Shown here: piece after piece, positions 22,483 through 26,325 of the stretch | Position numbering within the stretch: the stretch's first letter is position 1 | Layout of the letters: each line of letters starts with the position of its first letter | Origin: an uncultured Bacteroidota bacterium | GTDB taxonomy: Bacteria > Bacteroidota > Bacteroidia > Bacteroidales > GCA-2748055 | NCBI GenBank assembly: GCA_963783435.1 | Contig: CAWANQ010000004.1 | Span: 948,428 to 1,012,427, forward strand | DNA: 64,000 nt | Direction: 5' to 3' | Notes under the pieces: model-generated | The model's database searches: none | What the model saw: only the letters and a program-made list of their open reading frames with translations | What the model was told of the DNA's origin: nothing | Translations under genes and position numbers: made by a program

Positions 22483-25400
22483 ATGAAATACAAGTCCTTC
22501 TTCCCGATGGTGCTGATTTTTCTGATGATGACCATTCCTATAGCGTCTCAAACGACCTTGTCGGGCATCTATAATGAATCCATGTACCTCTCTCTGAACA
22601 ACTCTCCATACCTGGTGGTTGATTCGGCTATATTCCAGGGTCCGGAGCTTCGCATCGACCGCGGAGTAATTGTCACCTTCAACTTTCATCCCCATGCAGA
22701 TAGGAAGGCCTATATGCGGATACGCAGTCAGATTATCCTGCCTGAGGACGATGGCACTCCCCCATCCATAATTTTCACTTCAGAGAGGGACAATATCCCT
22801 TATGACCTTAACGGGGATGAAGAGGCCTCCCGCCCTGCACCGGGGGACTGGGGTTATGTTCTTTTCGACCCTATCGAACCGGACAATTACATCGTAAACC
22901 TCAATTACCTGACCTTTCGTTTCGGAGGGGGCAGGGCCTTTGGCCATCAGACCGAAAAAAGGTTGTTTCCCATGACCGCCGTTTCCGATTACAATGTGTC
23001 AGGCAGGCATGAGGAACGGATTGTCTTTTTCAGGTGCAATTTTACACAATCGGCCGGTGTGGGCTTCTCCGCAGGGATGGGGATCCTGGACGACTGCCTG
23101 GTCAGCAACAACTACCATGGCGTACAGATACTTACATCAGACGCACTTCTTAAAAACACGCTGATCGCAGAGAATGAAATGTATCCCGTCTATCTGATCG
23201 ATCCGCTTATCAAAAGGGATGACATCGATAATTACAACTCGGTTATAGACTGGTACTATAACAATCAGCTAGAAGGCAATGCTGTCAATGCAATCGCCCT
23301 GGAAGGAACCATTCGCCAGGCCCATGATGATAAAGATCCATCCAGGGGAACGACGCTTCAGAATTTCGATCTGCCCTACCTTATTACCGGGGATCTGATT
23401 ATTGATTCCCTGGATTTATTTGTGGAGTCAGGTACACTGGTTAAATTCCTTCCACAAGCTATACGCGGTAAAGCCCTGAATATTATTGCCAGAAACTCGG
23501 GAACCCTTAACGCCTACAACGACGTGATCTTTACCTCTCTGCACGACTATACACACGATCCTCAGCCTCCGGAGCGAATTGAGGCTGGTCCTGTAGCCGG
23601 GGACTGGGGCATCATTTCCACTGAAATGCCTTTAATGCTGGGGGCCACCTTCAAATACGGTGGAAAATATGTAAGTAGCGTGGACGACCGGATCAAAGCT
23701 GATTCGAGTGCGGTGCTGCACATTACCGGACCCAGGAAACGAAGTATCACCTCCATCGGCTACAATCCATGGGGGGAGGTTGAAGCTTGCGTGTTCCAGA
23801 AACTTTTCCTGCACGGGATCCAGGTTCCTTTTCCTGAACCCGGTTCAGCTACAGTAAGTATCACCGGTAACAGTTTTTTCCTGGATCAGGACAGCTACGG
23901 CATCAGAACCCATTGGGAATCTGATCCGGGAAGTGAGGAAGTAACTGCTCAGCAGAACTACTGGAACAGCAGCAAGGGCCCCTACCATCCAGAGCTGAAC
24001 ACCCAGGGGAATGGCTGCAAGGTAGACGATTACGTTAGTTTTACAGACTTCCTGAGTAAGCCGGAGAAAGGAGATCCCCTGGTTTATTCCACACTCAGGG
24101 GTATGGTTACTGACAGCAGGGGAGATCCGCTCGCAAATGCCGCCGTCACACTTAACAGCAAAAGCCCCCAGACTGTGTATACCAACAAAGAGGGGCTGTA
24201 CTATCTGCCCGGTATCACATCAGGAACAGGTTTTGAACTTGGGGTTAAGGCCAAGGCCCACAGGGCAGCAAAAATAGCCCCGGTGGACATACCTTACGAT
24301 TCCAGCCTCCTTCTCAATTTCAAACTGGAGGAGTTAAGCATCGACTATGCCATCGACAGAAACTCATTTCAAATTAACCCCGTTGAATCCATAGTCGACG
24401 TAGGTGGCACCGCCCATCGCTACTACCGCATCATCGATATCCAAACTAAAGAACCGGTGTACGGCGTGGAGATCCTGGTTCCTGGCGTGGACACTTTTTA
24501 CAGCGATACCCGGGGAATTGTGGATGTCGCCATACCCTCGTTTGCCGTAGGAATTGCCGGTAATACCAAACCATTTGAGATCGAACGGATCGGCCTGGAA
24601 ACCCTTGATATTCCTTTTGATCAGCGGGAAAAATTCACAGTTAGTGTACGTCCCTACAAATACCGTAAAATCTGGTCGGGAAGTACTTTCTTCACTGTGG
24701 GGATCTCTGGTGTGCAAGCACAAAAGGAAACGGGAGCGGCCATCGATCTTCACCTGAAGGATGAGGGTTCGGGAGCCCTTGCAGACAGTATCCGGATGGT
24801 GCGACAGAGCCGTGTCGGCTTCGGAGTAAGCCAGGGAGCCAACGCTAAAATTGAACTTGGAAGTGTGGAGGCCGGTGCAGAAGCAGGGATTGGAGTGAAT
24901 CTGGATAATATTTTCGAAGATGATTTCAAGTTCGACTACCCGAATAATACCGGTCCCCAGGCTCTGGCCAAATTTATTGTGATGGCCGATGGGGCACTCC
25001 CTTATATGAGTGCTTCCCTGACCAGGTATTTTGTGTCCGCCCTGGAAAGGCGGGTGGATGACATTGACAAAGCTGCACTGAGCAACGCCATCGGAATGAA
25101 TCTGCATGCTTATGCCAGTGCCGGGGCAAGTCTAGACCTGGATATTCTAGAAGGAGAAAAGGCCTCCCTGGGGGCAGAGATCAAAGGTTCGGCTTCCATA
25201 TCAGGCGATATCACCTATATGGCCAGAAGGGGTGCTCATAAGCATCCTGTCTCAGACAAATATCCCCTGGATCTCGATTTCAACTTTTCCAGTGAGATAA
25301 AAGCAGAGGTCGGAGCTTCAGTGGGCCTTGACCTGGGTAAACTTTTCGGAATTGACAATGACAATAAGCCCAGTGACGCCGGACACAAGGTCGATTCCAA

Positions 25401-26325
25401 TCTTCCCTTCCCGCTACCTAATGAAGATTTAAACCTTGACCTCTTTGGTGCAGAGGCTTCCGGAAGCCTAATGTTTGGTTACCATTTCGGTACGAGCCGC
25501 CTTACTAGCAATCCCTCCTGCAGGTTGGGATTCATGTACGGCTACAGTTACAAGCTTGAAGGCAAGCTATTAGAACAATCCGAAGGCCTGTCTCTAAACC
25601 GGGAGTTCACCTACTCCTTCGATATATACGACAGTGAGATCATAGAGACCATCTCTGAGGGTACAGAACTGGCAAGTTCCCTGCTTTCAGCCGACAATTT
25701 GCTTAAGCTGAATATCTCGGACCTCACTTCAGGTAAGTTTTTCAATAATCCCATGAATTCCATCGCCTACCAGCAGAGCCGGAATTCATTTACCCTGGCT
25801 CCTGTTCCTTACCGAAAGACCGTCAGCGAGAAGGTAGATGAGGGAAGTTTCAAGCTAGCCATCAACGTGGGCATAAGTGTGGTTTCCGCAAAATTTGGCG
25901 CCGGATTCAAATACAAGGAAGTCAATACCTACAAGAAGGAAAACGGCCTCTTCTATAACTGGAAACTATACCCGATGGAAAGCTATGAATTCCTTGAGAA
26001 TAATGACGAGTACAAGGCCAGATTGATCGTGCAGGACATCGTAAATAGTTCAGCCAACTACCTGGTGGATGAGGTGAGAAGGAAGATCATACCCCCCATT
26101 TTCCGCAAGATAAAGATCTGGCCCTTCAACAAAAAATTGGCTGCTACATCTATCCCCATTGGACCGGATTCAAGGTCAAGCCAATTGGTCTTTGCCGATT
26201 CCTCCACGGTGATTTACCATCGAAGGAATCGACAGCCTGGATGTCATCTACTGGGACTGGTACGGAACCGGCGAAGAGTCGGGAGTGAAAAAAGCAGCAT
26301 CCAGCCCTGCCCTGCATGCCATTAA
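22483..26325 (+). CDS. Giant T9SS surface protein, N-terminal ORF (real coding probably ends ~26211)
   Basis: Signal peptide MKYKSFFPMVLIFLMMTIPIASQ. Carboxypeptidase-regulatory-like domain (LRGMVTDSRGDPLANAAVTL). A long unassigned G/A/S-rich strand region. The last ~38 codons (IYHRRNRQPGCHLLG..) look out of frame. Confidence 0.7.
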   Translation: MKYKSFFPMVLIFLMMTIPIASQTTLSGIYNESMYLSLNNSPYLVVDSAIFQGPELRIDRGVIVTFNFHPHADRKAYMRIRSQIILPEDDGTPPSIIFTSERDNIPYDLNGDEEASRPAPGDWGYVLFDPIEPDNYIVNLNYLTFRFGGGRAFGHQTEKRLFPMTAVSDYNVSGRHEERIVFFRCNFTQSAGVGFSAGMGILDDCLVSNNYHGVQILTSDALLKNTLIAENEMYPVYLIDPLIKRDDIDNYNSVIDWYYNNQLEGNAVNAIALEGTIRQAHDDKDPSRGTTLQNFDLPYLITGDLIIDSLDLFVESGTLVKFLPQAIRGKALNIIARNSGTLNAYNDVIFTSLHDYTHDPQPPERIEAGPVAGDWGIISTEMPLMLGATFKYGGKYVSSVDDRIKADSSAVLHITGPRKRSITSIGYNPWGEVEACVFQKLFLHGIQVPFPEPGSATVSITGNSFFLDQDSYGIRTHWESDPGSEEVTAQQNYWNSSKGPYHPELNTQGNGCKVDDYVSFTDFLSKPEKGDPLVYSTLRGMVTDSRGDPLANAAVTLNSKSPQTVYTNKEGLYYLPGITSGTGFELGVKAKAHRAAKIAPVDIPYDSSLLLNFKLEELSIDYAIDRNSFQINPVESIVDVGGTAHRYYRIIDIQTKEPVYGVEILVPGVDTFYSDTRGIVDVAIPSFAVGIAGNTKPFEIERIGLETLDIPFDQREKFTVSVRPYKYRKIWSGSTFFTVGISGVQAQKETGAAIDLHLKDEGSGALADSIRMVRQSRVGFGVSQGANAKIELGSVEAGAEAGIGVNLDNIFEDDFKFDYPNNTGPQALAKFIVMADGALPYMSASLTRYFVSALERRVDDIDKAALSNAIGMNLHAYASAGASLDLDILEGEKASLGAEIKGSASISGDITYMARRGAHKHPVSDKYPLDLDFNFSSEIKAEVGASVGLDLGKLFGIDNDNKPSDAGHKVDSNLPFPLPNEDLNLDLFGAEASGSLMFGYHFGTSRLTSNPSCRLGFMYGYSYKLEGKLLEQSEGLSLNREFTYSFDIYDSEIIETISEGTELASSLLSADNLLKLNISDLTSGKFFNNPMNSIAYQQSRNSFTLAPVPYRKTVSEKVDEGSFKLAINVGISVVSAKFGAGFKYKEVNTYKKENGLFYNWKLYPMESYEFLENNDEYKARLIVQDIVNSSANYLVDEVRRKIIPPIFRKIKIWPFNKKLAATSIPIGPDSRSSQLVFADSSTVIYHRRNRQPGCHLLGLVRNRRRVGSEKSSIQPCPACH

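Follow-up and report, generated by a model that had tools for sequence, protein, structure and literature searches.

Introduction

Surface adhesins, enzymes, and S-layer proteins of Bacteroidota include modular proteins, with Ig-like, fn3, and cadherin domains and a Por_Secre_tail, that are exported by a type IX secretion system (T9SS) as type A cargo. After export, such a protein loses its C-terminal tail and becomes anchored on the cell surface (PMC8545088). Pore-forming proteins are also known in Bacteroidota, namely the BSAP/MACPF and CDCL proteins (PMC12853789, PMC11952106). Here, we analyzed a gene from an uncultured Bacteroidota bacterium, located in a stretch of 64,000 nucleotides of contig CAWANQ010000004.1 (positions 948,428 to 1,012,427), referred to below as the window. 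The gene lies at 22483-27934 on the + strand and, after repair of its reading frame, encodes a T9SS cargo protein of ~1816 amino acids. An earlier reading of the sequence alone (the original prediction) had described a Gly/Ala/Ser-rich module at 24655-26211 that matched no nameable domain, and had suggested that it forms amphipathic β-hairpins of a membrane-inserting or pore-forming kind. The analysis showed that the whole protein belongs with the known modular surface proteins exported by T9SS, and that its core is a unit representing an undescribed, rare domain family with an unusual predicted architecture.

The Core Unit and Its Family

All seven peptides quoted as examples in the original prediction were found on the + strand in the open reading frame (ORF) starting at 22483, at residues 751-764, 778-808, 876-910, 938-952, 988-1003, 1016-1027, and 1134-1146. 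Pfam and NCBIfam searches confirmed that the module is placed between a CarboxypepD_reg domain (residues 537-616) and the fn3, cadherin, and Por_Secre_tail domains. The module itself had no match in either database at E ≤ 1, as was the case for the whole region of residues ~620-1500.

An exhaustive phmmer search of 1.84 billion representative proteins revealed 41 relatives at E ≤ 1e-3, including 12 at E ≤ 1e-30. A profile (A3) comprised 15 sequences and 666 positions, and an alignment of 43 sequences (A6) was inspected by eye. The A3 profile aligned to nearly all 41 relatives over positions 2-665 of the hidden Markov model, and therefore the conserved entity is a unit of ~620-680 residues. The module of the original prediction makes up the first four-fifths of this unit, and a helix and a small β-sandwich make up the rest. 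Its end at 26211 turned out to be a frameshift rather than a domain border, and the conserved unit runs ~145 residues further, to ~26641. None of the 15 members of A3 showed a match to the unit in Pfam, NCBIfam, or PADLOC, and PDB sequences gave no match by phmmer or by profile search. A literature search found no description of the family, and the sole name given by NCBI to a member, a Carboxylicivirga orthologue, is 'T9SS type A sorting domain-containing protein'. We conclude that the unit is a real, conserved, and rare extracellular domain of ~650 residues that was previously unannotated.

The relatives were poorly detected by a word-indexed protein search. It returned two fragments for the module and seven fragments for the alignment of the C-terminal half of the unit, and nothing for the alignment of the N-terminal half. 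All full-length members later recovered exhaustively, for example P0010 and P0011 (= WP_143304096.1, the intact protein of Carboxylicivirga sp. M1479), were missed. Low-complexity Gly/Ala/Ser words probably fill the 8000-candidate list of this search, and a result of 'no homologues' obtained in this way is unreliable for such Gly/Ala/Ser-rich sequences.

Genome and metagenome contigs were scanned with conserved peptides (YWDWYGT, FYQFEPY, and others), which gave 19 loci in genomes that include Carboxylicivirga linearis, Carboxylicivirga sp. M1479, and metagenome-assembled genomes of Rikenellaceae, Bacteroidales, and 'Bacteroides sp.'. An intact single ORF of ~1760-1830 codons is present in eight loci (L002, L003, L006-L008, L010, L012, and L013). 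These eight ORFs are collinear with the window protein (start within its residues 1-22, end at 1812-1813) and share 37-41% identity with it; for intact collinear orthologues, whole-length identity is 34-41%. No conserved gene neighbor or second component was found, as the flanks differ at every locus (penicillin amidase, VIT/TPR, DUF362, ATPase, and others).

The CarboxypepD_reg domain is the conserved first element of the family cassette and was present in all eight relatives scanned in full (six, plus L019 and L020). The heads upstream of it vary and include Beta_helix/NosD, Laminin_G_3, Cohesin, CARDB, and SBBP propeller/DUF7948, or the head is lacking. The head of relative P0033 is like that of the window protein (Beta_helix, 1.8e-21; NosD, 3.9e-16). 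Downstream of the unit, fn3 is usually retained (five of the six relatives scanned, plus L019), and the C-terminus is mostly a T9SS tail, with a type I dockerin instead in P0033 and P0005. The unit is shared by T9SS-tailed and dockerin-tailed forms, and it therefore works outside the cell, whatever the outer membrane of the producer. One relative, P0028, has a cohesin head together with a T9SS tail. There are hints that some family members could assemble via cohesin-dockerin pairing.

Predicted Structure of the Unit

The alternating pattern noticed in the original prediction is real. It was measured as the fraction of 13-residue windows with a high period-2 (β-type) hydrophobic moment, and compared with 500 shuffles it gave z = 5.5 for residues 725-1243 and z = 7.9 for residues 725-1048. 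In the case of the all-β head and tail of the same protein, z was about 0. The description of the module as Gly/Ala/Ser-rich is correct only to a modest degree, the content of these three residues being 27.7% in the module and 32.2% in its N-terminal half vs. 22.1% in the rest of the protein.

The unit was modelled with AlphaFold2 (model m292fac050c32) from the alignment of 43 sequences; model numbering equals protein numbering minus 714. The mean predicted local distance difference test (pLDDT) score was 76.3, the predicted template modelling (pTM) score was 0.75, and the five models were at 72-76. A shallower alignment of nine sequences resulted in an unusable model (pLDDT 36). The pTM of 0.75 over 681 residues indicates one compact, mutually packed body.

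The amphipathic-hairpin part of the original prediction was borne out by the model, in which five very long antiparallel hairpins with strictly two-faced strands are predicted. The hairpins form the first part of the unit (residues 725-1048; 24655-25626), which is delimited by the model, face composition, conservation, and the periodicity given above. Ten strands of 13-28 residues occupy the N-terminal 334 model residues and pair as 11-27/30-46, 51-78/81-104, 151-173/182-203, 215-236/270-292, and 298-315/322-334, with hairpins up to ~90 Å long. They follow each other as a plain meander, so all five hairpin tips lie at one end. In the model, the chain enters and exits at the opposite end, where helical clusters 110-150 and 337-386 insert. 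The first of these clusters, at the base of the sheet (residues 824-864; 24952-25074), is highly conserved and has the hallmark ALAKFIVMADG...L..R. When the hairpins were compared with each other by hhalign, the best probability was 57% (37-57% for hairpins 2-4), which is not significant, and internal repeats were rejected.

The second part of the unit (residues 1049-1295; 25627-26368) is predicted to be mixed α/β, with helices 337-386, 465-485, and 552-578 and shorter strands within 394-453. It spans the frameshift and contains the motifs KFGAGF, PPIFRK, and YWDWYG. The third part (residues 1296-1386; 26369-26641) is a small β-sandwich at model positions 584-670, recognized by its invariant columns and by 10-residue block means of pLDDT of mostly 84-96. 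Confidence of the model is low only at the hairpin tips and at residues 247-268 (pLDDT < 50). The latter belong to the loop that tips hairpin 4 (residues 951-983; 25333-25431), which is disordered and has many Lys, Asp, Glu, and Asn residues. In the alignment, this loop has up to ~45 charged residues in close orthologues and gaps in distant relatives, that is, it is long only in the subfamily of the window protein.

The two faces of the strands differ in composition across the family. The apolar face consists of 17.7% Ala, 12.1% Leu, 11.6% Val, 10.7% Phe, and 10.2% Ile, and the polar face of 20.1% Gly, 13.8% Ser, 13.0% Glu, 7.8% Asn, and 7.2% Lys; the Gly/Ser texture of the module comes from this single face. 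On the apolar face of strands 182-203 and 215-236, only 1-3% of residues are charged. Starting at each tip, there is an apolar stripe of ~16 residues, then a charged band at 16-19, and then an aromatic-rich base. On the polar face, Gly clusters in the distal 12 residues (24-28%). Conservation is equal on both faces: the apolar-face residues A85, A87, A166, and A168 are conserved at 87-96% and A231 at 75%, and the polar-face Gly residues G65, G67, G84, G90, G157, and the one at position 281 at 75-93%. Most of helix 110-123 (ALAKFIVMADG) is hydrophobic. Its helical moment is low, at 0.40, and it lies in the best-conserved stretch of the N-terminal half. The remaining helices are amphipathic with moments of ~1.0-1.5, apart from lower values of 0.3-0.9 for the helices at 552-578.

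Conserved Motifs

The best-conserved part of the unit is the sandwich, which lies beyond the coordinates of the original prediction. It contains the nearly invariant YGIGGFYQFEP, followed by EDK...W..GG.VD...N.V.A.I...G.FTLAP (26369-26641). The motif YWDWYG at 26249-26266, also past 26211, belongs to the second part of the unit, which has the invariant columns W543, W545, and G547 (model numbering). YWDWYG and the sandwich motifs are nearly invariant even in relatives of 23-25% identity, and the region with YWDWYG, YGIGGFYQFEP, and the EDK motif is a candidate functional surface.

Two further residues, R774 (24802-24804; R60 in the model) and D813 (24919-24921; D99 in the model), are invariant in 100% of 32 sequences. 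Both are located on the otherwise apolar face. The predicted register places one exactly across from the other (60+99 = 78+81), and this pairing supports the register of the hairpin. In the model, the pair may represent a buried salt bridge or a ligand site.

Structural Neighbors

Foldseek searches of PDB and BFVD returned transmembrane β-barrels only among the 50 matches listed: FecA, EspP/Hbp, OmpT/Pla, FadL, and a SusC-like protein. These matches were weak (E ≥ 2e-4), with TM-scores of 0.06-0.29 and root-mean-square deviations of 14-31 Å, which means that the unit and the barrels do not superpose. Neither a pore-forming toxin nor a lipid-binding fold was among the 50 matches listed. The pore-forming-toxin families (MACPF, Thiol_cytolysin, Aerolysin/ETX_MTX2, Leukocidin, Gasdermin, and others) gave no match at E ≤ 1 to the window protein or to the 15 members, and a toxin match was also absent from PADLOC, NCBIfam, and PDB sequences.

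Proposed Role of the Unit

With moderate confidence, we take the unit, the core of a modular surface protein, to be a soluble domain with a new fold. The apolar face of the strands would lie in the interior of the protein, where the helices pack onto it and the sheet curls over itself, and the face rich in Gly, Ser, and Glu would be exposed to solvent. Such an arrangement would give a soluble, rigid, finger-like body able to fold in the periplasm and to pass through T9SS. After export, the C-terminal tail would be cleaved and the protein tethered on the cell surface, as described for type A cargo (PMC8545088). There, the unit would present the variable binding head and would probably have a conserved interaction of its own, oligomerization or a common ligand, via the invariant YGIGGFYQFEP/YWDWYG surface.

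Several properties of the unit agree with a soluble core. Helix 110-123 would need a hydrophobic pocket because it is mostly hydrophobic and falls in the best-conserved stretch of the N-terminal half, and in the model it is read as buried. The amphipathic helices are as expected for a layer lying on the sheet. The conserved Ala residues of the apolar face fit steric packing and not a lipid-facing surface; lipid-facing surfaces are normally variable.

Other observations weigh against this reading. Which of the two faces is buried is inferred, and the helices, with ~140 residues, are too few to cover the ~200 residues of a ten-strand sheet. In each hairpin, the distal 12-16 residues are the most hydrophobic on the apolar face (Kyte-Doolittle value of 2.2 at the tips), with 24-28% Gly on the polar face, and this composition is the exact signature of transmembrane hairpins. 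The same distal parts are highly conserved yet have pLDDT of 50-60, as is typical of segments that undergo conformational change or depend on a partner. Furthermore, membrane barrels are the only structural neighbors among the 50 Foldseek matches listed.

These observations bear on the proposal of the original prediction that the unit acts on membranes, which in our view is unlikely. In our fuller version of this proposal, the unit would be a latent β-pore-forming or membrane-inserting effector, soluble during export, whose head binds a target and whose five hairpins then insert with their distal halves into a foreign membrane as a β-barrel, either alone or after oligomerization. The hairpins are indeed long and strictly amphipathic, with the nearly uncharged face of strands 182-203/215-236, the continuous apolar stripe near the tips followed by the charged band, and aromatics enriched toward the base; in the model, the stripe of ~16 residues from the tip would give all five the length required for a bilayer. 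The conserved distal parts of low confidence, the sheet that the helices cannot cover as a whole, and the barrel-only Foldseek matches point the same way. Polymorphic toxins likewise combine a swappable head with a conserved core, the family has few members with a patchy distribution, and pore-formers are known in Bacteroidota from the BSAP/MACPF and CDCL proteins (PMC12853789, PMC11952106).

However, insertion into membranes and pore formation found no support in the comparisons made. No toxin family was matched in Pfam, NCBIfam, PADLOC, PDB sequences, or among the 50 Foldseek matches listed, and TM-scores to barrels were at most 0.29. In the clade of the window protein, hairpin 4 has a polycharged, disordered loop of 33-45 residues as its tip, and since all five tips point the same way, this loop would need to pass through the bilayer. 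The unit is internal and lies between Ig-like domains, in a protein anchored through its tail. A protein core is favored by the Ala patches and by the hydrophobic helix, read as buried. We know of no β-pore-former that contributes five hairpins per protomer. A topology like that of MACPF/CDC, in which the order is strand, helices, hairpin, helices, strand, was rejected, since the order of secondary structures in the unit does not fit and no matches were obtained. Slightly more doubtful is the wider claim that the unit founds a new class of membrane-inserting β-barrels, with five Gly-rich hairpins per chain, exported folded via T9SS or displayed through a dockerin, and equipped with interchangeable receptor-binding heads. 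As such, it would be a contact-dependent pore-former carried on the surface or on vesicles and aimed at targets by its heads, with no relation to MACPF/CDC, aerolysin, hemolysin, or gasdermin.

It is distinctly improbable that the curved sheet and the helices enclose a long apolar groove or cavity for a lipid, lipopolysaccharide, or a hydrophobic polymer. An apolar sheet face ~50 Å long that is only partly covered by helices would suit such a ligand, as would the space left by the small residues on this face (17.7% Ala), and a head group could be bound by the invariant R60-D99 pair, which is situated at the stripe's inner end. The proposal is purely inferential, as neither a sequence match nor the gene neighborhood lends it support, and no lipid-binding fold appeared among the 50 Foldseek matches listed.

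We consider it highly improbable that the unit is an outer-membrane β-barrel inserted by the β-barrel assembly machinery (BAM) as an autotransporter-like anchor in the producer's own membrane. The texture resembles that of outer-membrane proteins, the weak Foldseek matches are to autotransporter, OmpT, FadL, and TonB-dependent barrels, and the number of strands is even with both chain ends on one side. It is this last property that excludes the anchor on topology, because with both ends of the meander on one side the periplasm would retain the head, the fn3 and cadherin domains, and the T9SS tail. Such an anchor also contradicts T9SS export and the dockerin-tailed variants. Neither the window protein nor the family members have a Pfam outer-membrane-protein match, the TM-score is at most 0.29, the unit is internal with no C-terminal β-signal in terminal position, and connections of 46 and 59 residues lie at what would be the periplasmic end.

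Finally, an ordinary Ig-like or adhesin repeat array, or a low-complexity linker, missed by the profile libraries is barely credible. The flanks are Ig-like, fn3, and cadherin domains and hairpins 2-4 are weakly alike, but strands of 17-28 residues and helical clusters of 40-50 residues are unlike Ig-like repeats, which are tandem sandwiches of ~90-110 amino acids with short strands. The model shows no such array, none of the 15 members matches any repeat family, and the similarity among hairpins lacks significance. A linker is ruled out by the invariant motifs and by conservation along the entire unit at 25-60% identity.

Domain Layout of the Window Protein

The N-terminus of the protein is a predicted Sec signal peptide, MKYKSFFPMVLIFLMMTIPIASQ (22483-22551, + strand, as are all features of the gene), read directly off the translation. 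It is followed by the variable head (residues ~24-530; 22552-24072), which resembles a right-handed β-helix on the basis of a weak Pfam Beta_helix match (E 0.026) at residues 177-272. The CarboxypepD_reg domain at residues 537-616 (24091-24330) was assigned by Pfam PF13620 (E 2.5e-9). Between it and the unit lies a linker of ~100 amino acids (residues ~620-722; 24340-24648), delimited by sequence and by conservation in the alignment and lacking a Pfam match, which from its sequence is probably an Ig-like β domain.

Downstream of the unit, an fn3 domain (fibronectin type III; PF00041, E 4.2e-8) was found at 27065-27313 and a cadherin-like domain (PF00028, E 1.3e-6, 29.1 bits vs. a cut-off of 28.8) at 27362-27628. 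The gene ends with the T9SS type A sorting domain (Por_Secre_tail) at 27689-27919, matched by PF18962 (E 8e-10, 39.3 bits vs. a cut-off of 27) and by TIGR04183 (24.8 bits vs. 23). The two matches exceed the curated cut-offs and are both situated at the extreme C-terminus, as is characteristic of T9SS type A cargo.

Reading Frame and Frameshift

The original prediction spoke of a giant protein. In the list of ORFs and their translations, the window splits it in two, ORF1 at 22483-26325 (1280 amino acids) and ORF2 at 26285-27934 (549 amino acids), the frame of ORF2 being +1 relative to ORF1. Three-frame translation placed a shift of 1 nt within 26209-26216 on the + strand, at 26212-26215 (gtg a ttt a), where the true reading passes from ...QLVFADSSTV to (I/F)TIEGIDSLDVIYWDWYG.... 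Relative P0002 carries FADTTEITIEGIDSL uninterrupted in a single frame, and the simplest account is therefore one extra T (TT→TTT in gtgaTTTacc). The closest intact orthologue, P0010 (1799 amino acids), has no shift (7 samples). Programmed frameshifting was rejected because there is no slippery motif and no nearby stop codon in frame 0, and orthologues are single ORFs. The shift is either an assembly error or an inactivating mutation. The signal-like N-terminus and the sorting domain, which belong to one ORF in orthologues, are parted by it in the window assembly; if it is real, the signal peptide and the T9SS tail would be on separate polypeptides and the gene would be inactive.

Broken copies were also seen at other loci. 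In L001, there are about five frame changes at 9250-10000, all in the Gly/Ala-rich N-terminal half of the unit, with intact flanking regions of 2.2 kb upstream and 2.3 kb downstream. In L021 (Illumina, coverage ~4), the frame shifts at ~540-565 in a CCCCC/AAAAA run in PPIFKK, and L017 has an in-frame TAA at 2782-2784, immediately before the sandwich. Assembly trouble, strain heterogeneity, or recurrent decay could be the cause in these three loci.

Genomic Surroundings

The divergent gene upstream (19313-21724, - strand) encodes an 803-residue outer-membrane protein resembling TonB-dependent receptors (CarboxypepD_reg + Plug + OMP_b-brl_3) and is not conserved beside orthologues. At a distance of 4 kb downstream, a streptopain-like Peptidase_C10 protein with an Inhibitor_I69 propeptide is encoded at 31759-32988 (- strand). 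The G+C content is 0.36-0.39 at 32000-40000 vs. 0.42-0.50 over most of the remaining window, and the former region may have been horizontally acquired.

Significance and Comparison with Known Systems

Naming the family fills the largest annotation blank in these proteins, and the unit likely offers structural biologists a new fold. A named Carboxylicivirga strain carries an intact orthologue, which may provide a tractable test of whether T9SS cargo can include a new type of membrane-active module. Should the unit prove to be no more than a scaffold, its interest would not go beyond domain cataloguing.

Among known systems, the β-pore-forming toxins (α-hemolysin/leukocidin, aerolysin/ETX-MTX2, MACPF/CDC including BSAPs and CDCLs, and gasdermins) share with the unit Gly/Ser-rich amphipathic hairpins of bilayer-spanning length, a variable targeting domain on a conserved core, and secretion by Bacteroidota. 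They have one or two hairpins per chain, whereas five are predicted for the unit, which in addition carries a polycharged tip loop and is set between Ig-like domains. Outer-membrane barrels (FecA/BauA, EspP/Hbp, OmpT/Pla, and FadL) have in common with it a long antiparallel amphipathic meander with an apolar face and a Gly-rich polar face. They show no sequence similarity to the unit, which is an internal part of a secreted, tail-anchored protein, contains helical inserts, and has no terminal β-signal. With modular T9SS type A cargo, the window protein shares CarboxypepD_reg, fn3, cadherin, and the sorting domain, and its N-terminus is signal-like. It differs from this cargo in its core of ~650 amino acids, which has no counterpart in Pfam, NCBIfam, or PDB and which is also found in proteins where a dockerin replaces the T9SS tail.

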